Positions 675 to 64,000 of a DNA stretch of 64,000 bases are shown here, in pieces. The DNA lies in the NCBI GenBank assembly GCA_045636685.1, contig JAZTXZ010000109.1, positions 10,381 through 74,380 of the forward strand, written 5' to 3'. The position numbers and the translations under genes were made by a program. Each line of letters begins with the position of its first letter. Position 1 is the first letter of the stretch. The notes below the pieces were generated by a model that saw only the letters and a list, made by a program, of their open reading frames with translations, had not been told where the DNA came from and did no database searches. This stretch comes from Candidatus Avispirillum sp. GTDB taxonomy: Bacteria; Bacillota; Clostridia; Oscillospirales; CAG-272.

Positions 675-3600
675 ATGAAAAAACCAAAGATTTTGTCTCT
701 TTTCAAAAGAGGCAACAAAAACACAAAGCCCAAGGAAAGAAAGCCTGTTAACGTTTACTACTCACCTGCAGACAATATGTCCCCCCTTTGGCAGTACGTC
801 GGTCTTTTTCTCCGAACCCTTATCCTTTATATCGGCGTTTTCGGTATAACATCATTTATTTGCGGCGCCGCAGGTCTTACAACCTCTGATTACTGGCAGG
901 CAACAGCGGTGACTCCCGGATACATCGCACTTCTTAGCATCCCCGTCGCCATCGCAAGCGCTGCCGCATCTCTGGGTAAGATTCCCGCCCTCATTACCCC
1001 CTTTGCTTACACGGGCATATATGCTGCCATCACAGCTATAGCCTACGGCAATCCTATTGACTTCACAGTAAAAAGCGCTCTTCGAATCTACAACTATGCG
1101 CTTTATACCGTATCCTCCATAGGATATTACTCCATCGGAAACTTTATGATAAACGACGGATATGACTACTCTACTGCGGGTTCTGCCATATCTGATCCAT
1201 ACCGCTTCGGCGGCACGTTTCTCCTTGCTACGCTTTTAGGCTTTATTCTTTATTTCTGTGTTCAGAGAAAAACCAGAGTGCTCCCTATAATTATTCTCAT
1301 AAGCGCAGTATTTGCACCTATCCTTACGTACAATATTGCCGAGGGCAACTCAGGCATCGCGTTTATGCTCGTATTTATATGCGCGGTTCTTGCTCTTAAT
1401 GTTTACGATTATCGCTACGGCGGAAAAGCTGAAAGCATACTGCTCAAAAGGAAGCTGAGATCTGAAAAGAAAAAGGAAAAGATTGAAAAGAAGCTGAAAA
1501 AGAAAGCAGAAAAAAAAGCCCTTCGCGATGAGGCGGAACGAGTTTTTGACAAGGCAATAGATGCGGACATTCCTCTCTCGAAAGCAAGAGCCGCTAAGCG
1601 TGCCGTTTTCAAAAACCAAAAGGAAACGAGAAAAAATCAAAAGCTTACTTTGAAGGCTGAAAAAAAGCTGGAAAAGAAAAACGCAAAAAAAGCAAAAAAG
1701 GAAAAGTCTCTTCTTATAAAAGAGGCAAAAAAGGAGATCAAAAAAGCAAAAAAGGATTCTTTGGCAAGAGCTGCAGCCACAGAAAAACTTTCCCAGCTTC
1801 TTTCGGCTGACACTGAAAAAAAGCTCAAGCAAAAAGCAGACGCAAAAACAAGACGTCTTGAAAAGAAAACCTTTGACAAGCGCCGCCGCAAGATATCCAT
1901 GGCAGGCGGCTACACAGGCTTTGGCGTTGCTCTTATCGCCTTTCTTGCTGTATGGCTCCCTCTCGCCATAGTTGACAGCCCCTTTGCTGTTATCAAGCCT
2001 ATCAACAGCCGTGTTCAGGCTACCCGCGCTTACGTTACCGCATATCTCAGAGGAAGTGACGTCGATCTTGACGATCCTTATGTTTACGGTGTCAACACTC
2101 TTGCACCAAGAACTCTCAGCTTTGATCCGCTGGAGCTCGAGGACAAAAAAATGTTCACCGTAGATGCCAAGGGAACCGGCAACGTTTACCTCAGAAGCTG
2201 GGTTGCTACAGACTTTAACTGGCAGGAAAACACATGGATCAGCGCAACATATGATCAGGTTCACTCCTACAGAGATCAGTTCGGCACCGACTTTACTCCC
2301 GACAGCATCAAGACCGACTATTACAAATATGTATACCCTTCTTCTGCTGTCATCACAGATGCAAACACCTATAAGAATTTCTCAAAATACGGTTTTACCG
2401 TGCAGCAGATAGACGTATGGCGAGTTCGCGGATCAAGCCTTCTTCTGTTTGTCCCCGCCCACATGAACACCGATGCAGGTATTCTCACCTACACCGATAT
2501 CTTGCCTGCACCGTACAAATACCAGAACTATTATGAAGGAACATACTCCTCCTTCTATTATCGCTACGGAAGAGGCTACAGTACCGTCTCCTTCATTACG
2601 GCACTGAATCGCGCAGATACAAAAACAAGTATTGACGCTTCTCTCGAATACTACAAGCTCTCCCTTGATACCATCAGAAATGCCCCCTACGCCACAGGTC
2701 CCGACGCCGACAGCATCCTTTACAACTACGAGATGCAACTGATGGAAAAAGGACTTGAGTATCAGGGAACAAGCATCGTTGACAGATTTTATTTTTCCAT
2801 GTCTGCCGAAGAGAAGGAAGCATTTATCAAGAGCGCTGACACAGAAGACAAGTACTACGAATACGTTCTTGATACATACACAAAAAAATCTGAAAACGAA
2901 AGAATTGCCGGAGTTGCCGAAACACTCAAGGCAGATGCCATAGCCAAAGAAACAGAGAACGGTGGCGACGGGGTACTCTCTGCCCATGAAGCAGTCATGG
3001 CAATAGTAGATTATTTCAGAAGCGATGAGTTTTATTACACAGAGACCCCTAACAAGGATCTTATAAAAGGCCAGGCAAAACCTGTTATCGAATCCTTCCT
3101 CCTTGACGTAAAACAGGGTTACTGCACACACTTCGCATCAAGTGCAGTTGCTCTCCTTCGTGAGATGGATATTCCCTGCCGCTATGCCGAAGGCTATGTG
3201 GCAACTGACTTTGAGCCCCTCGGCTCAAACGGAACGAAATACCGTACCGATGTTTACGGAACTCAGGCTCACGCCTGGATCGAGGTGTACTTCGAGGATA
3301 TGGGCTGGATGCAGTATGAAGTCACTCCCGGCCAGCTCTGCGACGATATGTATGACCCCAACAGTGATACAATCGCTCCCGAAGAGGATTACATTCCCGA
3401 GGAAGAAGAAGAAAACACACCCAAGCCTCCCTTCGGCATCGAAGACGAGGATGAGGATGAGGATATTATCCCCGACGACGACTTTGAGGTGAAAGAGGAA
3501 GTATCAGATCTTGAGTGGTTTGTTCGCATTATCTTCATCGGTCTTGGTATTGCTGCATTTGCGCTTCTTATCTGGCTCATCATCAGATTTATCAGAAAGC

Positions 3601-7682: not shown

Positions 7683-7844
7683 TATGATATTAAATTTTCT
7701 CATGGTATTTATATTGTACTTATTATGTATTGATTTAACAGTTTCAATCGAACTTACAATGCACGCCTATCTTATTTTAACATCCTTTTATAAGGTTTTT
7801 TTGAAGGCATGGGGACTTTTTCAAAAAAAGCTTCTGCTATTCTC

Positions 7845-8951
7845 CTAATGTCCTCGCACCTTTGCAAAATACCCGTCTGCGGCCTTCTGGAGGCATTCGA
7901 CGGCATTTTCCATGGCATACTCAACACCCATCTCCTCACTGACACAAATGGCCGTAACGCCATCAGGCAAGGATTCCGTGCCGTTAATGCCACAGAATAC
8001 CGTTACTGTTTTTCCGACAGATCTTTCAATAACTCCTCCTACCGCTTTTCCCATAAAGCTTTGACTGTCAAGCTTTCCTTCTCCTGTTATAATAACATCC
8101 GCATCTTCAATATGCTTCTCAAAATTATACAGAGAAAGAACCACATCGATCCCTCTCTCAAATTCGGCACGAAGAAAGGACATAGCGCCATATCCTATTC
8201 CGCCGGCGGCACCGGCCCCTTCAGCTTTACTTTCATCCTTTCCCGTTACTCTCCGGATCACCGCTACAATCTTCTCTGCACCTCTTTCAAGATGCTCCAC
8301 CCCCTCGGGAGTCGCTCCTTTTTGAGGACTGAAGACTCTCGCGCAACCTTCATCTCCGAGAAGGGGATTTTTTACATCACACATAAGTACAAAATCTATC
8401 CCTCTGTACTTTGAAAATGCCTGATTGAACTCAATAGACTCAACTCGCTCAAGATTTCCGCCAACGGGAACAAAATGATTACCGCATATATCTACAAACT
8501 GCACACCCATGGCACTAAGCATTCCTGCACCGAGATCGTTTGTACAGCTTCCGCCGAGGGCAAGGATTATCTTTTTCGCCCCTCGCGATGTGGCATAAGA
8601 TATCATCTGGCCAACTCCGAAGCTTGATGTCCGCTCCGGGTTTGCTCTTTTACCTGCCAGAGGCAACCCTATTGCCTGCGCACTCTCAATAATGGCAGTA
8701 TTTCCTTTATCAATAAAGCCGATGGATACTTTTACAGGCTTTGCAAACGGACCCTCGACTACTGTTGTTTCTATTTTTCCCTTAAGAACCTTTGTCAGGA
8801 GAGCCACAGTTCCCTCTCCGCCATCGGCGATGGGAAGCTCTGTGACTGTGCAATCGGGATATGCGCGCCTTGCGGCATATCTGATTATTCTGCAGATCCT
8901 TTCAGCATCAAGGGTTCCTTTAAAGGAATCGGGTGCAATTACTATCTTCAT
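7845..8951 (-). CDS. glxK: Glycerate kinase
   Basis: 368 aa. MKIVIAPDSFKGTL N-terminus and overall GK-family architecture. Confidence 0.9.
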   Translation of the reverse strand: MKIVIAPDSFKGTLDAERICRIIRYAARRAYPDCTVTELPIADGGEGTVALLTKVLKGKIETTVVEGPFAKPVKVSIGFIDKGNTAIIESAQAIGLPLAGKRANPERTSSFGVGQMISYATSRGAKKIILALGGSCTNDLGAGMLSAMGVQFVDICGNHFVPVGGNLERVESIEFNQAFSKYRGIDFVLMCDVKNPLLGDEGCARVFSPQKGATPEGVEHLERGAEKIVAVIRRVTGKDESKAEGAGAAGGIGYGAMSFLRAEFERGIDVVLSLYNFEKHIEDADVIITGEGKLDSQSFMGKAVGGVIERSVGKTVTVFCGINGTESLPDGVTAICVSEEMGVEYAMENAVECLQKAADGYFAKVRGH

Positions 8952-9890: not shown

Positions 9891-10799
9891 TTATATTTCT
9901 CCGCAAAGGCGAGAAGTAAGGAATCTCTTGAACTTTTCTTTGTCGCCCCATTTAAGAGCAACGTTCATTTCTTTACCTCGTTCGGGGTCTATAAGGGTCT
10001 GAGAAGCATCATTTGCATAAATGGGAAGAACCTGATACTTAAGGTTCTCCTTTGTAAAGCATGCATATACGCCGACTGTATCGAAGAGAGCACTTGAACC
10101 GCCACCGTTATTCCACTCGATCTCCTTTGCCCAAAGATCAACATTTTCACAAAGAGCTTTGATTATGGGATCCTTATCACTGCATGCGCGGATTCTTCCG
10201 AATGCTTCTGCATCAAGAAAGAGATTGCCCGTTACATCAAGGGGAAGAAGCTCTACGGGGATATCTGAATTCACAAGCGCCGCATTCCATGAATCCTTAT
10301 CACACTTAACGTTCCAGTCAGATCCGAGGGGAGGATACCAGCCAACGCAGTGTCCGTTATAAATAACGCCGCCGATAGCAATGATCTTGCACTTCTTTGC
10401 AATTCTGGGATCGATCGCATAAGCATCTGCCATATTTGTAGATGCGCCGATAACAAGAACTGTGATCTCTTCATCAGAATCCATAATATAGTCTACTATG
10501 GCCTGCGCCGCGTTTTCCTTATAGTTGGGATAGCTTGCAAGATCAAAGTCTCCGATCCATGCCTCCTGATAGCGGGGATCCATATCTGTCGGTCTGCCCT
10601 TTGCAACTATGATATCATCTCTTCCGCAGACTGTGAGGAATTTTGCCGCAAGGCGAGCCTGATACTCTGTACCAAATCCGTTTACGGAAACCATCCTGAT
10701 ATCAAGCTCAGGGCTCTTCAGTGCCATGGCAAGCGCCCATGTATCGTCAATATCGCTTCCGATATCAGTATCAAAAATGATTGGGATTGGTTTGAACAT
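9891..10799 (-). CDS. Nucleoside hydrolase (inosine/uridine-preferring family)
   Basis: IIFDTDIGSDIDDTWALAMAL aspartate-cluster motif. Start moved to the ATG at 10799 (MFKPIPIIFDTD), which is preceded by GGAAGGA. The ORF-track start at 10844 adds 15 unlikely residues. Confidence 0.85.
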   Translation of the reverse strand: MFKPIPIIFDTDIGSDIDDTWALAMALKSPELDIRMVSVNGFGTEYQARLAAKFLTVCGRDDIIVAKGRPTDMDPRYQEAWIGDFDLASYPNYKENAAQAIVDYIMDSDEEITVLVIGASTNMADAYAIDPRIAKKCKIIAIGGVIYNGHCVGWYPPLGSDWNVKCDKDSWNAALVNSDIPVELLPLDVTGNLFLDAEAFGRIRACSDKDPIIKALCENVDLWAKEIEWNNGGGSSALFDTVGVYACFTKENLKYQVLPIYANDASQTLIDPERGKEMNVALKWGDKEKFKRFLTSRLCGEI

Positions 10800-10904
10800 A
10801 ATAATCCGTTCCTTCCATATAATGTGATACGTATATTGTATCACAAACTATCCCGATTGTACAGTAAATAAGCCATTTTTATTTGGCATTTTTTATAAAA
10901 AGTA

Positions 10905-10933
10905 TTGACTTTAAAATGTCCTTGTGCTAAAAT
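10905..10933 (+). promoter_or_regulatory. Sigma-70-type promoter for the T-box leader
   Basis: TTGACT (10905-10910), 17-nt spacer, extended -10 TGcTAAAAT (10925-10933). Confidence 0.6.
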
Positions 10934-37514: not shown

Positions 37515-39131
37515 ATGAGTATTTTTAAAATCAAAGACGAAGCAAAACAAAAGCCTATCAAAAACGAGCACGCAAGAGAAGCATACGCCACTTTGCAGCG
37601 CTATAAGGCAGGAAAAGCATCTCTCGAGGCAAGGATCATTGAAAATGAGCAATGGTGGAGAATGCGCCACTACAATTTTGACGCAGGCACAACCCCTTCG
37701 GCATGGCTTTTCAATTCTATTATCAACAAGCACGCAGACGCCATGGACAACCTTCCCACCGTTGCTTGTCTGCCAAGGGAAGAAAGGGATATAAGCGCAT
37801 CAAAGCTCCTTTCAGACATTCTTCCCGTCATTCTCGAGGAAAACAAATTTGAAAACACATACTCCGAATGCTGGTATGACAAGCTTAAAAGCGGAAGCGC
37901 CTGCTACGGCGTTTTCTGGAACCGTTCTTTTGACGGAGGGCTTGGAAACATTGATATCAGACGCATTGATCTGCTTGATCTTTTTTGGGAACCGGGAATC
38001 ACAAACATTCAGGATTCAAGAAACATATTCCACGTTGAGCTTTGGGATAACGATATTCTGAAAAGCAAATATCCGCAGCTTGAAGATTGCCTTGCATCTC
38101 CCATATTCGATACCTCAAATTATATTTACGATGACGCTGTCGACACATCAAACAAAACTCATCTGATCGACTGGTACTACAAAAAGACAGTAAACGGCAG
38201 GGAAATCGTTCATTTTGCAAAGATTGCAAACGGCATTCTTCTATATGCATCGGAAAATGATGCCGTATACCGCGAAAGCGGATTTTATAATCACGGTAAA
38301 TATCCCTTTATTATCGACAAGCTGTACCCCGTTCAGGGTTCTCCCTGCGGATTCGGCATCATTGATGCCATGCGCTCTACTCAGGAGCAGATCGATACTC
38401 TCGGTTCAGCCATTATCAAAAACGCAAAAATGGCGGCAGAAAGAAGATACTTTGTCAGAGCGGACGGTTCTCTTAACGAAAAGGAATTTGCGGATTTTTC
38501 CCGTCCCTTCGTTCATTATCAGGGCTCCGGCGATCCCAATTCTTCGATCATGCCCATAAACACCCCCACACTCTCAGGTATTTATGTTTCCATACTGAAC
38601 AATAAAATCGATGAGTTGAAGGAAACAAGCGGCAATCGCGACTTTTCCCAGGGCTCCGTTACAGGAGGTGTCACAGCGGCGGCAGCGATCGCTGCTCTCC
38701 AGGAAGCGGGAAGCAAGACATCGAGAGATACTATTTCCGGCTCCTATCGCGCCTTTGAGGAGATATGCTCTATCGCTATCTGCCTTATAAGTCAGTTTTA
38801 TGAGATCCCCAGATGCTTTCGAATCACGGGGGAAGACTCTGCAATTGAGTTTATGTATGCACAAAAAAGCTGTTTCCCTCCTCTCAGTGATAAGATCCCT
38901 GTATTTGATATCAAAGTCAGAGCTCACAAAAAGTCTGCTTTTTCCAAGGCATCTGTTAATGAGCTTGCACTTGAGCTTTACAGGCTTGGGGCATTTAATC
39001 CCGAATATTCAAAGCAAGCGGAGATCCTTCTTTCTCTTATGGATTTTGAAGGAAAGGATGAGGCTCTTTCCGCTATACGCGAAAACAAAAGCCTTGCAAA
39101 TACTATAAGGACTCCTTCAGCTGTATTATGA
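37515..39131 (+). CDS. Phage portal protein
   Basis: 538 aa, directly after TerL. N-terminal YKAGKASLEARIIENEQWWRMRH is typical of SPP1-type portals as I recall them. Confidence 0.8.
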   Translation: MSIFKIKDEAKQKPIKNEHAREAYATLQRYKAGKASLEARIIENEQWWRMRHYNFDAGTTPSAWLFNSIINKHADAMDNLPTVACLPREERDISASKLLSDILPVILEENKFENTYSECWYDKLKSGSACYGVFWNRSFDGGLGNIDIRRIDLLDLFWEPGITNIQDSRNIFHVELWDNDILKSKYPQLEDCLASPIFDTSNYIYDDAVDTSNKTHLIDWYYKKTVNGREIVHFAKIANGILLYASENDAVYRESGFYNHGKYPFIIDKLYPVQGSPCGFGIIDAMRSTQEQIDTLGSAIIKNAKMAAERRYFVRADGSLNEKEFADFSRPFVHYQGSGDPNSSIMPINTPTLSGIYVSILNNKIDELKETSGNRDFSQGSVTGGVTAAAAIAALQEAGSKTSRDTISGSYRAFEEICSIAICLISQFYEIPRCFRITGEDSAIEFMYAQKSCFPPLSDKIPVFDIKVRAHKKSAFSKASVNELALELYRLGAFNPEYSKQAEILLSLMDFEGKDEALSAIRENKSLANTIRTPSAVL

Positions 39132-39454
39132 CACAGATAACATTTACACAATATTATGATACCTATCTTTTTGAATGCAAAGGTCATACGGGATATTCTT
39201 CGTGCGGCAGAGATATTCTCTGCTCTGCGGTTTCCTGCCTTTGCTATACCCTCGACAGATATCTGACGGGAGCGCGCGAAAAGGGACTAATTGAAAACTA
39301 CCGAAGTGATTTTTCCGAGGGAAACGTAAGCATATCATTTGAATATGCTGATATCAGCTTCCCATTTGCCGCTGAAGAGGCTGTGCGCGCAATTCTTGAA
39401 GGTTTTGTCCTTCTCTCGGAAAACTTTCCCGATCATATTTCAGCTGATATTTAA
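39128..39454 (+). CDS. Prp-like cysteine protease (DUF464, ribosomal-processing protease family; phage-encoded version)
   Basis: 108 aa. CKGHTGYSSCGRDILCSAVSCL matches the GH...G.D.vC..VS catalytic His/Cys pattern. 4-nt overlap with the portal gene. Confidence 0.7.
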   Translation: MTQITFTQYYDTYLFECKGHTGYSSCGRDILCSAVSCLCYTLDRYLTGAREKGLIENYRSDFSEGNVSISFEYADISFPFAAEEAVRAILEGFVLLSENFPDHISADI

Positions 39455-39509: not shown

Positions 39510-39684
39510 TTCAAATTCGGGTTTTGCGTGGGAGGTTATGTAGGGAAGCCGCTTGCTGCTCCTGCCCATCTGCACGCGAACCAAACTAACATTTACCCAT
39601 ATCGTTGCGTTTGCAGCGGATCGCCGAGGACGTCGACCCCTACAAATTCAATATCGTCTCCTCGATAAACCAGGATTTAAAATA
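39510..39684. repeat. REPIN/MITE-like element, copy 1 (~175 bp, imperfect 15-bp TIRs, inverted GTAG-headed hairpin motifs)
   Basis: Left end TTCAAATTCGGGTTT, right end AAACCAGGATTTAAA. Long blocks are identical to 54696-54891 (for example GCGAACCAAAC.AACATTTACC and ACGTCGACCCCTACAAA..TCAATATCGTCTCCTCGATAAACC). It contains GTAGGGAAGCCGCTTGCTGCTCCT at 39540-39563. Confidence 0.7.
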
Positions 39685-43231: not shown

Positions 43232-43258
43232 GTAGGGGCGACCATTGGTCGTCCCTAC
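43232..43258. repeat. REP-like palindrome GTAGGGGCGACC-ATT-GGTCGTCCCTAC
   Basis: 27-nt near-perfect palindrome with GTAG/CTAC ends. It lies 19 nt downstream of the GNAT stop and about 470 nt from the RAYT-like gene. Confidence 0.6.
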
Positions 43259-43276
43259 GTTATCCGATACAATAAC

Positions 43277-43738
43277 TTATTCTGTATAAGCGGATATATT
43301 TATTTCTTTTCTATATATTTTCTCAACACTCCCCCAAGGTGCTACTTTTCTGTCTATCACAACAAATCCGTATTTTTCATAAAGATTTTCATGATCGCTA
43401 ATAAGGTAAATGTCTGAAAATCCTACGTTCTTCAAATACCGTTCCGCGTATTGGATCATCAACTGACTCAAACGGTTACCTCTGTATTTTTGATCAACGA
43501 AAATGTAACTGACATACGGAGTATAGGGAACATCGGGAATACAATCATTTTTTTGAACCGTACAAAATCCGCATATATCTTCATTTTCAGTTACTACAAT
43601 CACTTTCTCCCAATCTGAAAACTGATTTTCTTCCATCAAAAAAGCGAGATTTTTACCTGCTCTCCACGAACAATTCTCAGCATAATTCTTTGCAATTTGC
43701 CAGAAAGGGTCGGTTGAATCTATTAATCTAAATTTCAA
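43277..43738 (-). CDS. GNAT-family N-acetyltransferase
   Basis: 153 aa. Acetyl-CoA binding pattern VDQKYRGNRLSQLMIQYAERYLKNVG. Confidence 0.8.
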   Translation of the reverse strand: MKFRLIDSTDPFWQIAKNYAENCSWRAGKNLAFLMEENQFSDWEKVIVVTENEDICGFCTVQKNDCIPDVPYTPYVSYIFVDQKYRGNRLSQLMIQYAERYLKNVGFSDIYLISDHENLYEKYGFVVIDRKVAPWGSVEKIYRKEINISAYTE

Positions 43739-44330
43739 TATCAGTCTTTTCTCCCAAATTCATATTTTTGTAATACCACCGCATCGGATTTTCGTGGATG
43801 TATTTAACATGCTCCTCGTAATCCTCGCGATTGCGGATAACGTGCTCAGAAAAGGAACGTTGAAACATTTTATCGATTCCAAATTTCTTTTTACATTCAC
43901 GGGACATCAAAGATTTAAATGCACGAACTACATCATGCAGCGTAGGGGAGCCGCTTGCTGCTCCCGACTCCATGCGTAAAAATATAAGTAAATGAATATG
44001 GTCGGGCATAATAACGTAATTCTTTATTTTTACGTTATTATATCGATTTTCTAAATTCAGGATCTGTTCTTCTGCGATTTTGCCAATGGGGGTTAACCTT
44101 GATTTATAGTTGTTTGAAAATGAAGATTGTGCCTCTGAAATTTCGTTTAAATCAAGACGTTCGTTCTCGGGAGCAGCAAGCGGCTCCCCTACGATGTTTG
44201 ACAAAATCCGTTTTCTATCCTGCGTACATATCGTTACAAAATATACGCCGGTTTTGCTGTAATCATAATTTTTGAGATGCGTTGCTTTTCTCTCAGGTAA
44301 TTTGTTTTCCATATCTATCACCTTATTCAA
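43728..44330 (-). CDS. IS200-like Y1 (HUH) transposase family protein, REP-associated tyrosine transposase (RAYT)-like
   Basis: 200 aa. YFVTICTQDR N-terminal strand, HUH motif IMPDHIHLLI, C-terminal catalytic Tyr context EHVKYIHENPMRW. No IS ends or second IS gene are present. Confidence 0.8.
   Translation of the reverse strand: MNKVIDMENKLPERKATHLKNYDYSKTGVYFVTICTQDRKRILSNIVGEPLAAPENERLDLNEISEAQSSFSNNYKSRLTPIGKIAEEQILNLENRYNNVKIKNYVIMPDHIHLLIFLRMESGAASGSPTLHDVVRAFKSLMSRECKKKFGIDKMFQRSFSEHVIRNREDYEEHVKYIHENPMRWYYKNMNLGEKTDIEI
43942..43965 (+). repeat. GTAG-headed hairpin 24-mer inside the RAYT-like CDS (copy A)
   Basis: GTAGGGGAGCCGCTTGCTGCTCCC (GTAG + GGGAGC/GCTCCC stem). Read on the coding strand it gives SGAASGSPT. 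Confidence 0.7.
44169..44192 (-). repeat. GTAG-headed hairpin 24-mer inside the RAYT-like CDS (copy B, inverted)
   Basis: Exact reverse complement of 43942-43965 (24/24). In the coding frame it reads GTA GGG GAG CCG CTT GCT GCT CCC = VGEPLAAP. Confidence 0.7.
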
Positions 44331-44365: not shown

Positions 44366-45487
44366 TTACTTATTCAATTTCCACTTTGTGGAAAGGATGC
44401 TGGTGTGCCAGTCCTCGGGGAGGGCCTGATAATAAATTGTATAGAGAGATCCGTCGGGAAGCTCTACTGTTGCGGGGTAGCCCATATCGCGCTGACCCTC
44501 GTAATTGATATTATCGTTAAGGATATAATCCTCTTCCCATGTTTCGCCGTTATCGTAGCTTACCACTGCTCTTTCGGAGATCTGTCCCCAGGTACGGCAG
44601 GAATAGCTGCAGATAACAGCACCGGAAGAATGCACCATAAAGTGAGGAGGCATTCCGTCAACACCGATGCACTTGGGAACGCTCCATGTCTTACCCTTAT
44701 CATCGGAATATGTTACGTATACGGAATCGGAGGGTGCATCCTTTCTGCCGTTTACGCGGATACCGCCGAGGATTCTGCCGTTAGGAAGCTCGATCTGGTG
44801 AGCCTCGTACATCTGACCGTAGTCGCAGTCCTCGCCCATGGGAACCTGACCTGCATATTCCCATGTTGCGCCGTCATCTGTACTTGTATAGCAAACGAAA
44901 TCGTTATCGAAAGCATAATCAGGCTCGAATCTCTTGCCCATATAAACGAGAGTACCATCCTTGCAGCGGCAGGGGCCGTGAGGAGAATGAACGTTGAGTC
45001 TTACTCTTTCACCCCATGTTACGCCGTTATCTGTGGAAAGGCTTACGTATGAGCCCTTCTCCTCGTTATACTCCTCGTCTGTGAGAGTATGCCAATACTT
45101 GCTCCAGCCATCCATCATTGCCTTATCGCCGGGGTTGAGCCATGTCTGCTCCTGCATATGATCGAGGTAATTATCGTAATTATCGGTATACCAGGACATG
45201 AGCATCTTTCCGCCGCCGAGGTTAAGGATTCCGGGGTCGCGGTCGTCAATTCTTGAATCGTATACCACGATAGGGGGAGTCCATGTCTTACCCTCGTTGA
45301 AGCTGACCCACATGATGTTCTTTCCTGCGTGGTCAACGTGGGACATACGAAGGCCTGATGCTACTGCATAAAGCCAGCCGTTATCGCCCATAGCAAGAGA
45401 GGGCCATGCGTTATACTTGAAGGGATTATGATCGTTTGTATATCTGTGTACTATGCCGTGCTCGGCTTCGGGTCTGATTATTTTCAT
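44366..45487 (-). CDS. BNR/Asp-box repeat protein, sialidase-like beta-propeller (no signal peptide), paralog 2
   Basis: Five SxDxGxTW-type Asp boxes (SFNEGKTW, STDNGVTW, STDDGATW, SDDKGKTW, SYDNGETW). Start set at ATG 45487 (MKIIRPE), homologous to the paralog's start and forming an ATGA overlap with the upstream stop. Confidence 0.8.
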   Translation of the reverse strand: MKIIRPEAEHGIVHRYTNDHNPFKYNAWPSLAMGDNGWLYAVASGLRMSHVDHAGKNIMWVSFNEGKTWTPPIVVYDSRIDDRDPGILNLGGGKMLMSWYTDNYDNYLDHMQEQTWLNPGDKAMMDGWSKYWHTLTDEEYNEEKGSYVSLSTDNGVTWGERVRLNVHSPHGPCRCKDGTLVYMGKRFEPDYAFDNDFVCYTSTDDGATWEYAGQVPMGEDCDYGQMYEAHQIELPNGRILGGIRVNGRKDAPSDSVYVTYSDDKGKTWSVPKCIGVDGMPPHFMVHSSGAVICSYSCRTWGQISERAVVSYDNGETWEEDYILNDNINYEGQRDMGYPATVELPDGSLYTIYYQALPEDWHTSILSTKWKLNK

Positions 45488-46605
45488 TTGTTTAAACTCC
45501 ATTTCGTATAAAGAATACTTGTATGCCAGTCATCGGGAAGTGCCTGATAATAAAGGGTGAGAAGTGAGCCGTCGGAAAGCTCAACAGTTGCGGGGTAGCC
45601 CATATCGTGCTGCTTATTTCTGTTGATTCTCTCATCAAGAACGTAATCCTCGGACCATGTCTCGCCGTTATCGTAGCTGACAACTGCACGCTCGGACATA
45701 GTTTCCCAGTTTCTGCAGCTATAGCTGAGAATGAGAGCGCCTGAGGAATGGATCATGAAATGAGGGGGCATTCCGTCGATTCCCATGCATTTAGGAGTAG
45801 ACCATGTTACGCCCTTATCATCGGAATATGTAAGATATGTGGAATCTGTGGGTGCCTCCTGTCTTCCGTTTACGCGGATAGCGCCGAGAAGGCGTCCGTT
45901 TGGAAGCTCGATGATATGAGGCTCGTGCACCTGATTGGGAGCAAGGTTTTCAAAATCGGGAACCTTTCCGCAGAACTCCCAATTCTTTCCGCCATCAGTG
46001 CTCTTCCAACACTCAACGTCGGGGCCGTAGGGATGCTCATAGGTCATTGTTTTGCCGAGATAGTAAATAGTTCCGTCCTTTGCAACACAGGGACCGTGGG
46101 GGCTTGTTACGGGAACTCTGATGTTCTCGCCCCATGTTACACCGTAATCATCGGAAAGCTTAACAAAGCTTCCCCACTCCTCCTTTGCCTTTTCGGGAGG
46201 AAGAGTTTTCCAATATCCGCTCCAGCCGCTGATCATTGCCTTATCGGAGGGATGCATCCAATCCTGATCCTGCATATGGTCAAGATGGTTTTCATACACA
46301 CTTGTGAACCATGACATAAGCATTTTGCCCTCACCGAGGTAGAGGATACCTGTATCGCGGTCATCAAAATTGGAATCGTTTACGATAATGGGGGCAGTCC
46401 AGCTTTCGCCGTCGTTAAAGCTGACCCACATTACGTTCTTACCGCAGGGGTCAACGTGGGAAAGTCTGAGGCCTGATGCAGTTGCATAAAGGATACCGCG
46501 ATCGTCCTTACAAACTGTAGGCCATGCATTATATCTGAAGCAGTTATGCTCTGTAGGGTATCTGTGAACTATGCCGTGCTTCTTTACAGGATCGATTATC
46601 TTCAT
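45484..46605 (-). CDS. BNR/Asp-box repeat protein, sialidase-like beta-propeller (no signal peptide), paralog 1
   Basis: Same architecture. Start set at ATG 46605 (MKIIDPV), preceded by GAGGAAAGGAA. The ORF-track extension to 46725 was rejected. Confidence 0.8.
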   Translation of the reverse strand: MKIIDPVKKHGIVHRYPTEHNCFRYNAWPTVCKDDRGILYATASGLRLSHVDPCGKNVMWVSFNDGESWTAPIIVNDSNFDDRDTGILYLGEGKMLMSWFTSVYENHLDHMQDQDWMHPSDKAMISGWSGYWKTLPPEKAKEEWGSFVKLSDDYGVTWGENIRVPVTSPHGPCVAKDGTIYYLGKTMTYEHPYGPDVECWKSTDGGKNWEFCGKVPDFENLAPNQVHEPHIIELPNGRLLGAIRVNGRQEAPTDSTYLTYSDDKGVTWSTPKCMGIDGMPPHFMIHSSGALILSYSCRNWETMSERAVVSYDNGETWSEDYVLDERINRNKQHDMGYPATVELSDGSLLTLYYQALPDDWHTSILYTKWSLNK

Positions 46606-49189: not shown

Positions 49190-50284
49190 TCAGAGATATT
49201 TGGCAACTATTACCTTCATCTCTTCCATTTTTTTGTCCATATCACGAAGCAGAGCAAGCTGATTTCTTGCGCGGTCGCGGTTATGGAACGGATAATCTAT
49301 ATGGTAGTATACATCTCCGTTGAGATAATCTCCAAGAAAACGTATAGCTGTTTCGAGGGTCATAAGATATGCGCCCATAGGAAGACCCATGACCTCATCC
49401 TCCGTCATGGAAGCTCTGAGTTCGCCGAGAAATCCCTTCACAAAAACATCGAACTTCTCAAGATCAAGGCTGACCTTTGACAGATCTGTCTCATCTTCCA
49501 TTGCAGTTGATGCTCCGAAGCGGATAGCATCTCCGAAATCATAAAGAATGCTTCCGGGCATTACGATATCAAGATCGATAACACATATTCCCTCGTCGGT
49601 ATGCTTGTCCATAAGCACATTATTTATCTTCGTGTCATTATGGGTAACGCAAAGTCTGAACTTCCCGTCACGAATACCGTCTGTAATGTATGTACAAAGA
49701 GGCTCCTTGGAAAGCGCAAAGGCGATTTCCTCAGCAAGCTCCCCTGCTCTTCCCATTTTATCCTCGCTGACTGCCGCTTTGAACTGATCCATTCGGCTCT
49801 TTGAGTTGTGAAAATTGGGAATGGTTTCATAAAGGGTCTCTGCGGGATAGTCTGCAAGCTGGCTGGCAAATTTACCGAAAGCCACAGCACTCTTATAGAA
49901 AAGGTCACAGCTCTCGGGATAGTCATAAGATATAACATCGGGAATCTCAAGGAAAGCTCTCCAGTAGCATCCGTCAGGATCTACAAAATAATCTTTCCCA
50001 TCCTTTGTTCCTACAACTGTTCTGACCTCCCTGAGAGGGTCTCCACCTGCTTCTTCGACTTTTTTCGCAATATGAGAACAAACTCCCTTGATATTCGCCA
50101 TGAGCTTATCGGGCTCAGGGAATATCTCCGTATTGATCTTCTGGAGGATATAGCCGGGGTTTCCCACTCCGCAATCAATAAAAAAGGTATCGCTTATAAG
50201 TCCTGCATTACATCTTTTATATTCAACGGGAGGTGCGGCAAAATCAAATGCCGCACCCGCCATATCGAGATAACTTACTCCCAT
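49190..50284 (-). CDS. N-acetylhexosamine 1-kinase-like phosphotransferase (APH fold), paralog 2
   Basis: VTHNDTKINNVLMD, IDLDIVMPGSILYDFGDAIRFGAST and EDETDLSKV closely resemble my recollection of Bifidobacterium NahK/LnpB. Confidence 0.75.
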   Translation of the reverse strand: MGVSYLDMAGAAFDFAAPPVEYKRCNAGLISDTFFIDCGVGNPGYILQKINTEIFPEPDKLMANIKGVCSHIAKKVEEAGGDPLREVRTVVGTKDGKDYFVDPDGCYWRAFLEIPDVISYDYPESCDLFYKSAVAFGKFASQLADYPAETLYETIPNFHNSKSRMDQFKAAVSEDKMGRAGELAEEIAFALSKEPLCTYITDGIRDGKFRLCVTHNDTKINNVLMDKHTDEGICVIDLDIVMPGSILYDFGDAIRFGASTAMEDETDLSKVSLDLEKFDVFVKGFLGELRASMTEDEVMGLPMGAYLMTLETAIRFLGDYLNGDVYYHIDYPFHNRDRARNQLALLRDMDKKMEEMKVIVAKYL

Positions 50285-50320
50285 CTGATCTCCCCGGGCG
50301 TGTTGCCCTCACAATATGAA

Positions 50321-51427
50321 TTAGAGATACTTCTTTACGATTTCCTGCATCTGGGGCATCTTCTCATCCATGTCTGCGATGAGCTTGAGCTGGTTTCTTG
50401 CGCGGTCCTTATTCTGACCTTCATAGCGTGTATGGAAATATACGTCGCCGTTGAGGTAGTCGCCAAGGAAGCGGATACCTGTTTCAAGAGTCATAAGGTA
50501 TGCACCCATGGGGAGAGAAAGGATCTCATCCTCTGTCATTGAGTCGTGAAGCTCGCCGACAAATCCCTTTACGTATGTCTCGAACATTTCAAGATCCATA
50601 TATACCTTATCAAGGTCTGTTTCGTCCTCAGCAGCGCTGGATGCACCAAATCTGATAGCATCGCCGAAATCATAAAGAACAGAACCGGGCATTACTGTAT
50701 CAAGGTCGATAATGCAAACACCCTCACCTGTCTCAGCGTCCATGAGAACGTTATTGAGCTTTGTATCGTTATGTGTTACGCAGAGCTTGCAGCGTCCATC
50801 AGCAAGTCTGTCAAGAATATAAGAGCAAAGAGGCTCCTTGGAAAGTGCAAACTCGATCTCGGGACCCATCTCGCATGCGCGGCCCATCTTATCCTCAGCC
50901 ACAGCTGCCTTGAAGTCGTTCATACGGCTTACGGAGTTATGGAAGTTGGGAATAGTCTCATAAAGAGTCTCTGCGGGGTAGTCTGCAAGCTGGTTGAAGA
51001 ACTTACCGAATGCAACTGCGCTCTTATAGAAAAGCTCGGGGGAGTCGGGAGAGTTGTAGGATACAACATTATTGATCTCAAGGAATGATCTCCAGTAGCA
51101 TCCGTCAGGGTCTACAAAATAGTCTCCGCCATCCTTTGTGAAGATGATCTTTCTTACCTCACGATCAGGATTACCGCCTGCTGCCTCTACCTTTTTTGCA
51201 ACATGAGAGCAAACTCCCTTCATATTTGCCATAAGCTTTATGGGATCTTTGAAGATAGTTGTATTTACTCTCTGGAGAAGATAACGGGGATTTCCCTCTC
51301 CGCAGTCAACAAAGTAAGTGTCATTGATGTGTCCGATATCGCATCTTTCGTAGTTTACGGGTTCTGCGGCAAAAGCAAATGCTCTTCCTGCTTCCTCAAG
51401 ATATTTTACTGCCATTATAGCCTCCAA
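50321..51427 (-). CDS. N-acetylhexosamine 1-kinase-like phosphotransferase (APH fold), paralog 1
   Basis: VTHNDTKLNNVLMD, IDLDTVMPGSVLYDFGDAIRFGASS. Roughly 70% identical to the neighbouring paralog by eye. Confidence 0.75.
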   Translation of the reverse strand: MEAIMAVKYLEEAGRAFAFAAEPVNYERCDIGHINDTYFVDCGEGNPRYLLQRVNTTIFKDPIKLMANMKGVCSHVAKKVEAAGGNPDREVRKIIFTKDGGDYFVDPDGCYWRSFLEINNVVSYNSPDSPELFYKSAVAFGKFFNQLADYPAETLYETIPNFHNSVSRMNDFKAAVAEDKMGRACEMGPEIEFALSKEPLCSYILDRLADGRCKLCVTHNDTKLNNVLMDAETGEGVCIIDLDTVMPGSVLYDFGDAIRFGASSAAEDETDLDKVYMDLEMFETYVKGFVGELHDSMTEDEILSLPMGAYLMTLETGIRFLGDYLNGDVYFHTRYEGQNKDRARNQLKLIADMDEKMPQMQEIVKKYL

Positions 51428-54002: not shown

Positions 54003-54638
54003 ATGAATATCTTATTTGAAGATAAATATCTTGTGATTGCACAAAAGCCTGCAGGAGTCCCCTCTCAGCCCGACCCTTCGGGAAGAGAGGACATGATAAC
54101 TCTCCTGAAAAAAGAATGCGGAGGAGAGATATTCTGTGTTCACAGGCTTGATACGGCCACAAGCGGAGTTATGGTCTATGCAAAGGATTCCAAAACCGCA
54201 GGAAGGCTCACGGCATCACTATCCGATGAGAAATCGATCAAGCAGTATTTATGCGTAGTTTATTCCGACGATGCCAAGAGCGGTACCATGCGCGATCTGC
54301 TTTTCCACGACAAGCATAAAAACAAAGCATATGTTGTTGAAAGAATGAGAGCAGGAGTCAAAGAAGCGCTTCTTGACTATGAAACCATAGCAAAAAAAGA
54401 AGGACTATCCCTTGTTATGGTCACATTACATACAGGAAGAACCCATCAGATACGAGTACAGTTTGCAAGCCGTAAGATGCCCCTTGTCGGAGACGGTAAA
54501 TACGGAGCAAAGGACAACTGTTCCCTCGCTCTCCACTGTTTTCACCTCGCCTTTCCTCATCCTATAACGAAAAAGCTTGTTGATACAGTGTGGCTCCCTC
54601 AGACGGGCTGGCATTCCTTTGAAATTAATAATTATTGA
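54003..54638 (+). CDS. RluA-family pseudouridine synthase
   Basis: HRLDTATSGVMVYAK catalytic Asp motif. Start set at ATG 54003, because the TTG at 53988 lies inside the serA terminator. Confidence 0.85.
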   Translation: MNILFEDKYLVIAQKPAGVPSQPDPSGREDMITLLKKECGGEIFCVHRLDTATSGVMVYAKDSKTAGRLTASLSDEKSIKQYLCVVYSDDAKSGTMRDLLFHDKHKNKAYVVERMRAGVKEALLDYETIAKKEGLSLVMVTLHTGRTHQIRVQFASRKMPLVGDGKYGAKDNCSLALHCFHLAFPHPITKKLVDTVWLPQTGWHSFEINNY

Positions 54639-54639
54639 A

Positions 54640-54668
54640 GAAATCCGCCGTGTGGCGGATTTCTTTAT
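54640..54668 (+). terminator. Terminator after the pseudouridine synthase gene
   Basis: Stem gaaatccgcc / ggcggatttc plus a T-rich tail. Confidence 0.7.
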
Positions 54669-54695: not shown

Positions 54696-54891
54696 TTCAA
54701 ATTCGGTTTTTTCGGCAAGGTTAACCCGTAGAGGCGAATTCCATATCCGCCCGTTATCTGCAAGCGAACCAAACCAACATTTACCTATATTGTTGCGTTT
54801 GCAGCGGGTCGATCGTAGGAATGGAACATTCCTACAGACGTCGACCCCTACAAAATATCAATATCGTCTCCTCGATAAACCCGAATTTGAA
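54696..54891. repeat. REPIN/MITE-like element, copy 2 (196 bp, 15-bp TIRs, nested GTAG hairpin)
   Basis: TIRs TTCAAATTCGGTTTT / AAACCCGAATTTGAA. Core shared with 39510-39684. GTAGAGGCGAATTCCATATCCGCC at 54729, perfect hairpin GTAGGAATG-GAA-CATTCCTAC at 54815-54835, and ...GTCGACCCCTAC ending at 54851. Confidence 0.7.
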
Positions 54892-54916: not shown

Positions 54917-54950
54917 TTAAAAGGCTGTCGCATCTGCGACAGCCTTTCTT
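54917..54950 (-). terminator. Terminator after the dockerin protein gene
   Basis: Stem aaggctgtcgca / tgcgacagcctt. Confidence 0.7.
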
Positions 54951-60486: not shown

Positions 60487-60588
60487 CACAAAGAGCTATA
60501 AACCCGCATAAACACTAGGGTTTTCGCTGGTTTGCCCTATTGAACGCATTGGTGTCAAAAACGGGTTTTGGGCGGTTTTTATGCATAG

Positions 60589-60617
60589 CAAAAGCGAGGT
60601 GAATTTCACCTCGCTTT
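60589..60617 (-). terminator. Terminator hairpin after the membrane-protein gene (member of a repeated hairpin pair)
   Basis: aaagcgaggtgaa-t-ttcacctcgcttt; nearly identical to 63782-63808. Confidence 0.7.
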
Positions 60618-63781: not shown

Positions 63782-63810
63782 AAAGCGAGGTGAAGTTCAC
63801 CTCGCTTTTT
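63782..63810 (-). terminator. Terminator hairpin after the partial gene at the window end (second copy of the repeated hairpin)
   Basis: aaagcgaggtgaa-g-ttcacctcgcttt. Confidence 0.65.
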
Positions 63811-63811
63811 C

Positions 63812-64000
63812 TTATTCCTCACAAAGGCCTATGGCCTCCATATATTTTTTCATCTGGTTTTCGCTGGGGTGGTAATCGGGGTGGGAGCAGCAAGGGAGGG
63901 TGGGCTCGCTTCCGTCCTCTCCGTAGAAGGGGGAAAGACGATCGTTTTCGTAAAGCAGGCAATCCTCTTCCCTGTCAAAGTCGGGTATCATATAAGGCTT
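63812..64000 (-). CDS. Hypothetical protein, C-terminal 62 codons (gene continues beyond the window)
   Basis: Hand translation of the minus strand is open from 64000 to the TAA at 63814-63812: ...KPYMIPDFDREEDCLLYENDRLSPFYGEDGSEPTLPCCSHPDYHPSENQMKKYMEAIGLCEE*. It is not in the ORF track because no start lies in the window. Confidence 0.4.
   Translation of the reverse strand, partial: KPYMIPDFDREEDCLLYENDRLSPFYGEDGSEPTLPCCSHPDYHPSENQMKKYMEAIGLCEE

Follow-up and report, generated by a model that had tools for sequence, protein, structure and literature searches.

The DNA analyzed here is a stretch of 64,000 nt from Candidatus Avispirillum sp., referred to throughout as the window. At positions 54696-54891, between a pseudouridine synthase gene and a convergent DUF4838/dockerin gene, lies a palindromic element of 196 bp (copy 2). 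A second element of the same family (copy 1) and the gene of a transposase of the REP-associated tyrosine transposase (RAYT) type are located in the same window. The results presented below point, with a probability of about 0.7, to copy 2 being a decayed mosaic of a non-autonomous repeat of gut Clostridia. This repeat would be of the type represented by inverted pairs of repetitive extragenic palindromes (REPs), known as REPINs, and by bacterial interspersed mosaic elements (BIMEs), and would be serviced in trans by a RAYT. The parts of copy 2, its immediate surroundings and copy 1 are as follows, TIR designating a terminal inverted repeat.

54636-54667, plus strand: terminator-like hairpin belonging to the pseudouridine synthase gene upstream; the element begins 29 nt beyond it
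54696-54710, plus strand: left TIR of copy 2 (TTCAAATTCGGTTTT), homologous to the canonical GATAAATCGGAGTTT
54728-54751, plus strand: left module of copy 2, GTAG and a weak hairpin (GTAGAGGCGAATTCCATATCCGCC), in place of the canonical left REP arm
54756-54804, plus strand: conserved asymmetric core of copy 2 (ATCTGCA.GCGAACC...GTTGCGTTTGCAG)
54805-54851, minus strand: right arm of copy 2, its REP running on this strand as GTAGGGGTCGACGTC T(21-nt hairpin)GAT CGACCCG
54815-54835, no strand assigned: nested perfect palindrome GTAGGAATG-GAA-CATTCCTAC with a 9-bp stem, in the loop of the right-arm hairpin
54852-54876, plus strand: right sub-terminal block of copy 2 (AAAATATCAATATCGTCTCCTCGAT), kept in copy 1 and in the Avispirillum copies
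54877-54891, plus strand: right TIR of copy 2 (AAACCCGAATTTGAA)
54920-54947, no strand assigned: palindromic terminator-like hairpin behind the convergent DUF4838/dockerin gene
39510-39681, plus strand: copy 1, same family

The 15-nt ends of copy 2 are complementary at 14 of 15 positions: the reverse complement of the right TIR reads TTCAAATTCGGGTTT and differs from the left TIR by the single mismatch reported in an earlier note, made from the sequence alone. The inverted repeat extends to 25 nt at lower identity (84%). As that note had also stated, these ends are better preserved than those of copy 1, which pair at 12 of 15 positions, and the element lies between two convergent terminators. 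The extra perfect palindrome that it had described at 54815-54835 is present as well. Its placement before ACGTCGACCCCTAC is correct as far as adjacency is concerned and can be refined, the palindrome occupying the apical loop of the right-arm hairpin GGGTCGA...TCGACCC. Written through, the 21-nt hairpin reads GTAGGAATGTTCCATTCCTAC, and the right arm as a whole corresponds to the canonical arm of the family (REP-A, see below) with its apical CTCGG replaced by these 21 nt. Folded as single-stranded DNA, copy 2 performs far better than its shuffles (z = -5.4); the nested hairpin tops a 7-bp stem, GGGTCGA/TCGACCC, and the right-arm hairpin ends in CTAC. GTAG-tagged REPs are palindromes 20-40 bp long that bear GTAG at one of their ends. 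Copy 2 contains such units in its right arm (GTAG followed by GGGTCGA...TCGACCC), in the nested GTAGGAATG-TTC-CATTCCTAC and, in a weak form, in the left GTAGAGGCG...CGCC. Only its right arm is the REP of the family; its left arm is a different GTAG hairpin, the left module being unique among all the DNA compared.

Upon alignment, copies 1 and 2 share their ends, a core of 56 nt (91%) and a right end of 34 nt (91%). They differ in the left module, which in copy 2 is indeed replaced by another GTAG motif as previously noted, and in a net surplus of 20 nt in copy 2 that holds the nested palindrome. A hidden Markov model (HMM) of the family scores the two copies at E = 1.7e-52 and 8.1e-47, so that they are to be regarded as homologous and not as chance resemblances; no third copy was found in the window with this model. 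The left arm of copy 1 (39540-39563, GTAGGGAAGCCGCTTGCTGCTCCT) matches a hairpin located inside the RAYT gene of the window at 22 of 24 positions, and its right arm (39617-39643) differs from REP-A by 1 nt. The same RAYT hairpin matches no module of copy 2, and the two copies carry different left REP types on one scaffold. As single-stranded DNA, copy 1 folds no better than its shuffles (z = -0.35). It is located directly behind genes for a P22-like portal protein and a Prp-type cysteine protease (37515-39454) and may lie at or in a prophage.

Metagenome contigs and species-representative genomes were each scanned once for further members of the family, using an 18-20-nt word of the core. True relatives were obtained from 11 contigs of metagenome JAEIGA01, from 4 contigs of a Candidatus Avispirillum metagenome-assembled genome (MAG), which are the closest to the window copies, and from 5 contigs of the Clostridia MAG RGIG6372 (sheep rectum). 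Exact matches to the core thus amount to at least 4-5 per related MAG and to 11 in one metagenome, all of them intergenic. In total, about 20 copies were found beyond the window, in two Clostridia MAGs and one metagenome; members of the family measure about 185-205 bp. The family HMM recovers all related copies with E = 1e-30 to 1e-75. Eighty-odd further genome matches and 13 further metagenome matches to the core word, in unrelated taxa, were set aside as chance. Among viral contigs the core word gave a single chance match and the 21-mer none, and no BLAST match to the element was obtained in phage and plasmid collections. Many of the family contigs break off inside the element, as expected of assemblies that break at repeats.

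The canonical copies (L098, L085 and L102, together with L003, where L numbers designate the loci compared) measure about 185 nt. They open with the TIR GATAAATCGGAGTTT and a sub-terminal stretch of about 23 nt. The left arm, GTAG followed by a hairpin, comes next and leads into the asymmetric core (TATCTGCACACGAACCGAACTAACATTTATCACGTTTCGTTGCGTTTGCAG, about 50 nt). Beyond the core, the right arm repeats the left one in inverted orientation and closes with CCTAC; a further 25 nt or so then precede the inverted TIR. In the intact member of the family, the sub-terminal sequences also form an inverted repeat. The canonical arm, GTAGGGGTCGACGTCCTCGGCGACCC, is termed REP-A. Two inverted copies of one REP around a short spacer, the arrangement that defines a REPIN, are found in the canonical L003, L017, L085, L098 and L102. 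The 15-nt TIR is the outer tip of an arm-to-arm inverted repeat of about 70 nt. Inspection by eye of all junctions (about 15 left and 14 right) revealed no target-site duplication. All copies are intergenic, several of them directly behind terminators, and no orientation bias relative to neighboring genes was found on a crude map of open reading frames, both orientations being represented. Across genomes, conservation within the family is highest in the core. The earlier description of the element as modular is supported: the family is palindromic and present in many copies, its ends and core being conserved and its GTAG-hairpin modules variable.

The arm hairpins are maintained by compensatory change. 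The stem GGGTCG/CGACCC of the window, Avispirillum and JAEIGA copies is replaced by GGACCG/CGGTCC in RGIG6372, in both arms. In the corresponding alignment (A5), compensation involves 7 pairs and 22 cells changed on both sides, values that were reached by 1 of 500 shuffles for the pairs and by 0 of 500 for the cells. The arm stems are paired in 94.6% of the cells of this alignment, versus 33-52% when the partners are slid. A helix proposed for the core displays no covariation, 9 of its 11 pairs never varying, and is uninformative on structure. In L129 (190-310, minus strand), a solo hairpin of the RGIG6372 type (GGGACCGGCGTCCCCGACGGTCC, preceded by GTTG and not GTAG) is found about 100 nt from a solo terminal repeat (GATAAATTGGAGTTTA); both resemble fragments of the family.

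An enzyme of a type that could act on such arms is encoded 10 kb from copy 2. The features of this part of the window are listed below.

43728-44330, minus strand: gene of a RAYT-type Y1/HUH transposase
43942-43965 and 44169-44192: two in-frame REP hairpins (GTAGGGGAGCCGCTTGCTGCTCCC) within this gene, inverted and flanking the HUH motif
43232-43258, no strand assigned: near-perfect GTAG...CTAC palindrome GTAGGGGCGACC-ATT-GGTCGTCCCTAC, just downstream of the RAYT-GNAT gene pair

The product of this gene matches Pfam Y1_Tnp at 26.6 bits (cut-off 23) and its best solved relative is the E. coli TnpAREP (4ER8). The HUH motif is present as PDHIH and a C-terminal stretch aligns with TnpAREP. The gene occurs once in the window, and its homologues on other contigs have the same BNR and GNAT neighbors; the RAYTs P0003, P0026 and P0286 each display a constant gene neighborhood across several samples. 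The single copy and stable chromosomal context characteristic of RAYTs are accordingly found for the window gene. Its two hairpins, 228 nt apart, encode the peptides VGEPLAAP and GAASGSPT. Among 120 homologues, the two peptide motifs co-vary exactly as predicted from DNA complementarity, the pairs being VGEGLAPP/GGASPSPT, VGEPLAAP/GAASGSPT, VGECLGAP/GAPRHSPT and VGEGIAPP/GGAIPSPT. At the DNA level, the two sites of five homologues match at 23-27 of their first 30 nt, third codon positions included, and in the L129 gene the two changes that distinguish the sites compensate each other within each hairpin. In-frame inverted hairpins around the HUH motif were observed in the window RAYT and in L121, L125, L127, L129, L131 and L134. 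The palindrome at 43232-43258 translates to VGATIGRP, which is the site-1 motif of another RAYT (P0200).

A wider search revealed many RAYT subfamilies, each with its own motif pair. The subfamily with VGVDVLGDP and GSPRTSTPT accounts for 58 of 120 matches, and in the DNA of L131 and L134 both of these motifs are encoded by GTAGGGGTCGACGTCCTCGGCGACCC, as a perfect inverted pair. The right arms of L033 and L044 have exactly this sequence of the type-A RAYT genes, and copy 2 keeps its first 15 and last 8 nt in its own right arm. The arms of the RGIG6372 copies translate to VGTGVPDGP, close to the VGTGVLDGP group. In none of 389 proteins was a motif corresponding to the nested hairpin (VGMFHSY or VGMEHSY) found. 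Outside the gene, L121-L124 hold an inverted pair of the hairpin proper to the RAYT, about 95 nt behind the RAYT stop. This REPIN-like pair (10720-10930) begins with GATAAATC, and its spacer is 20 nt shorter in L123 than in L121, L122 and L124, which constitutes a length polymorphism. Comparison of the L121 spacer with the family core gave p <= 0.005 for copy 1 and L044 and was not significant for copy 2 and L098; homology between the two is suggestive only. Words of the terminal repeat were noticed near RAYT genes (GATAAATCGGA behind the stop of L131, TCCGATTTAT ahead of the start of L125) and were not retained as compelling, the 11-mer with one mismatch occurring 5 times in 165 kb versus about 3 expected.

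These observations suggest, tentatively and with the odds leaning against it, that a large clostridial clade of RAYTs carries its recognition hairpins in frame around the HUH motif. The gene itself would be REPIN-shaped, each subfamily would have its own hairpin, and the same hairpins would serve as the arms of extragenic repeats such as copy 2. If this is true, mosaic arms and a REP within a REP would be footprints of RAYT cutting and joining between hairpins, and the enzyme would be able to use the pair inside its gene to sense, regulate or rearrange that gene. In P0255, P0195, P0156 and P0171, three to seven tandem in-frame hairpin-encoded peptides are present at site 1 or 2, as if REPs could multiply inside the RAYT gene.

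The nested hairpin of copy 2 provides a view of how such arms may be remodeled. The earlier note had allowed for a simple local duplication; instead, the 21-mer recurs in three further copies, which belong to two other sources. The left arms of L033 (Avispirillum), L020 and L024 (both JAEIGA) contain its reverse complement, GTAGGAATG-TTC-CATTCCTAC, the last one retaining 19 of 21 nt where the contig end cuts it. Insertion by a Y1 transposase, as initially proposed, is plausible: a RAYT is encoded 10 kb away and the arms are hairpins of the recognition type, the insertion event itself being inferred. The competing explanation, to which we grant only slightly less than an even chance, holds that the 21-mer belongs to an old alternative form of the REP-A arm, with a long instead of a short apical stem, passed on by recombination or gene conversion, or that the short form arose by deletion of the palindrome. 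In its favor, the position of the 21-mer within the host hairpin and its orientation (loop TTC in the REP orientation) are identical in all four carriers, and the 21-mer was not found outside the REP-A arm context in the DNA compared or in viral contigs. The junctions of copy 2 (GTAGGGGTCGACGTCT, hairpin, GATCGACCCGC) and L033 (GTAGGGGTCGACGTCG, hairpin, GATCGACCCGCC) differ by only 1 nt, but those of L020 and L024 differ from both. Old ancestry is harder to reconcile with a 21-mer that has GTAG and CTAC as its exact limits, as an independent REP unit would, and that occurs in opposite arms, right in copy 2 and left in the other three carriers. Where complete, the 21-mer is moreover identical at 21 of 21 positions, versus 74-86% identity in the other sequence shared by the carriers; the chance of such identity without constraint is about 0.04 to 0.002, and the 21-mer must therefore be either constrained or recently shared. 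Altogether, the facts fit equally well a mobile GTAG...CTAC unit that entered the REP-A loop and a single old long-arm variant.

Exchange of hairpins on a common framework is apparent elsewhere. In L039, three successive units share the linker TTTGCAGCGG ... CCTAC and carry three different hairpins; this site of three half-units (3240-3500, minus strand) has a further GGGAGGGG...CCCCTCCC hairpin upstream. In L134, three REP types occur together in an intergenic cluster (7770-8040); the cluster holds an inverted type-A pair whose 36-nt spacer is unrelated to the core of the window element. The features of a BIME-like mosaic, namely mixed REP types, alternating orientation and conserved linkers, are displayed by window copies 1 and 2, L039 and L134. 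The variability of cassettes among copies that the earlier note had anticipated is therefore real, in the two window copies as in the three hairpins of L039. A conserved scaffold with exchangeable GTAG cassettes appears to be a fair description of the family as judged from its sequences.

The mechanism proposed on this basis can be summarized as follows. The REP arms would be substrates of the RAYT, a domesticated single-copy HUH/Y1 transposase. By analogy with the E. coli TnpAREP, the enzyme would bind the folded GTAG-tagged hairpin on single-stranded DNA and cut and rejoin the strand beside it; in Corneloup et al. 2021 (PMC8266576), TnpAREP is described as processing cognate single-stranded REPs in vitro, as requiring both the hairpin and the conserved motif that precedes it, and as co-evolving with its REPs. 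Acting in trans, the RAYT would move and remodel the elements by copying, swapping or stacking REP units. The right arm of copy 2 would then be a type-A REP that acquired, through RAYT strand transfer, a second GTAG...CTAC hairpin in its apical loop, and the left arm would have been exchanged in a similar way for an unrelated GTAG hairpin. Copy 2 is probably a relic that is no longer mobile, since its arms are mismatched and the window lacks a type-A RAYT.

A number of points weigh against this interpretation. Movement of the elements is inferred and not observed. No type-A RAYT is encoded in the 64-kb window, and the weak left hairpin of copy 2 (4-bp stem) has no matching RAYT motif among the 389 proteins. 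The window RAYT itself scores 79 bits with the NCBIfam model REP_Tyr_transpos, 1 bit below the cut-off of 80. Finally, the core, which is not palindromic, exceeds the arms in conservation. REPIN spacers are not usually of this kind, and the core may have an extra function that the present model leaves unexplained.

The family might alternatively derive from a RAYT gene by deletion, its arms being the two internal hairpins and its core a remnant of the HUH-coding segment. RAYT genes do hold the same two inverted hairpins 165-231 nt apart; upstream of the second one, L131 reads CATATTATGTTGCTTTTGCG where the element reads CATATCGTTGCGTTTGCAG, and by eye the frame that starts at the left GTAG remains the RAYT frame up to ...PT. 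The family HMM matches L131 at 10267-10324 with E = 3e-10, half of this match being the hairpin itself. Such an origin is nevertheless unlikely: the core taken alone resembles these genes weakly (p = 0.006-0.06 with L131, 0.12-0.24 with L134), the outer flanks of the element are inverted copies of each other and not N- and C-terminal coding parts, and other type-A hairpin pairs, as in L134, enclose unrelated spacers.

An interpretation as a structured RNA, either a 3'-untranslated-region element or a small RNA, would assign the function to the core and reduce the palindromic arms to stabilizing stems. It is quite improbable. The near invariance of the core over genomes with differing arms, the location of copies just downstream of genes or terminators and the stable fold of copy 2 would all be in keeping with it, but no Rfam family matches the element at the gathering score, the sub-threshold matches (E <= 1 was also tried) being driven by terminators. 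The presence of both orientations relative to neighboring genes on the crude map, the lack of covariation in the core helix and the ordinary folding of copy 1 also speak against an RNA. A classical miniature inverted-repeat transposable element (MITE; the earlier note had spoken of a REPIN/MITE-like element), with a DDE transposase acting on the 15-nt TIRs and GTAG hairpins as passengers, is highly improbable in spite of its typical size and of TIRs conserved across genomes (GATAAATCGGAGTTT / TTCAAATTCGG.TTT), as no complete copy displays a target-site duplication, the TIR is merely the tip of a longer repeat, the arms equal RAYT hairpins and no related insertion sequence (IS) turned up in the window, loci, phages or plasmids, no dedicated search of IS collections having been performed.

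Several additional features of the window were recorded. Two near-identical palindromic terminator-like hairpins (AAAGCGAGGTGAA.TTCACCTCGCTTT) are located 3.2 kb apart, at 60587-60617 and 63782-63812. The only Rfam family detected in the window at the gathering score is the T-box leader RF00230 (10937-11166, 107 bits). Two pairs of diverged tandem duplications, with a spacing of about 1.1 kb and 72-78% identity, occupy 44366-46000 and 49300-50730; the first consists of paralogous BNR/sialidase-like genes upstream of the RAYT, and the order BNR-BNR-RAYT is also found in L127.

The locus opens to study a REP/RAYT system of gut Clostridia, in which one scaffold bears interchangeable hairpins and one hairpin can be found within another. 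To our knowledge, work on REPs and REPINs has been devoted almost entirely to Proteobacteria. Hairpins can be assigned to RAYT subfamilies from two peptide motifs of the enzyme, and many odd G+C-rich peptide stretches (VGxxxxxP and GxxxxxPT) in annotated Clostridia 'transposases' are thereby explained. According to PMC8266576, the way in which REP and REPIN sequences spread is still unsettled. Arms shared with RAYT genes offer a new handle on this question as well as concrete substrates for the biochemistry of recognition, cleavage and strand transfer. For annotation purposes, the element should be masked as a repeat and not reported as a gene or an RNA.

Comparison with known systems places the family close to REPINs and RAYTs (Bertels & Rainey 2011, PMC3116915; PMC5581495). 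As in these, two inverted REP hairpins surround a spacer in the canonical copies, the repeats occur in several copies outside genes, the sequence of the arms appears to be linked to a RAYT present once and in a stable chromosomal context and, in L121-L124, an inverted hairpin pair adjoins the RAYT gene. The differences lie in the host (Clostridia and not Proteobacteria), in the additional conserved TIRs and conserved asymmetric core of about 50 nt, in the two arms of different REP types of the window copies, and in cognate hairpins that are found inside the RAYT coding sequence and not only flanking it. In-frame cognate hairpins of this kind were not found described in the literature searched, a search that was not exhaustive. 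The likeness to GTAG-tagged REPs (Di Nocera et al. 2013, PMC3733652) and to E. coli BIMEs rests on GTAG at the end of a 20-40-bp palindrome, on units of opposite orientation able to fold into larger structures, on a location downstream of coding regions, between unidirectional as well as convergent genes, and on mosaic clusters with conserved linkers (L039 and L134). The survey of these repeats lists them in Proteobacteria, Cyanobacteria, Chloroflexi and the PVC group, Firmicutes not being among them, and contains no description of a REP lying within the loop of a second one (PMC3733652).

With the E. coli TnpAREP and the REPtron (4ER8; Corneloup et al. 2021, PMC8266576), the system shares HUH and tyrosine motifs and the co-variation of enzyme and hairpin. 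The REPtrons described there have a coding sequence bordered by palindromes, whereas the palindromes of the window RAYT are in frame and flank the HUH motif. Like MITEs, the elements are small, non-coding, repeated and provided with TIRs, but neither a target duplication at the junctions nor, in the window, loci, phages or plasmids, a parent IS was found. Like PATEs, which are IS200/IS605 derivatives, they have hairpin ends of the kind used by a Y1 enzyme, but their arms are symmetric and inverted instead of being distinct left and right end hairpins. Relative to these known systems, the distinguishing features are the clostridial host, the additional TIRs and conserved core, the REP nested within a REP and the hairpins inside the RAYT reading frame.

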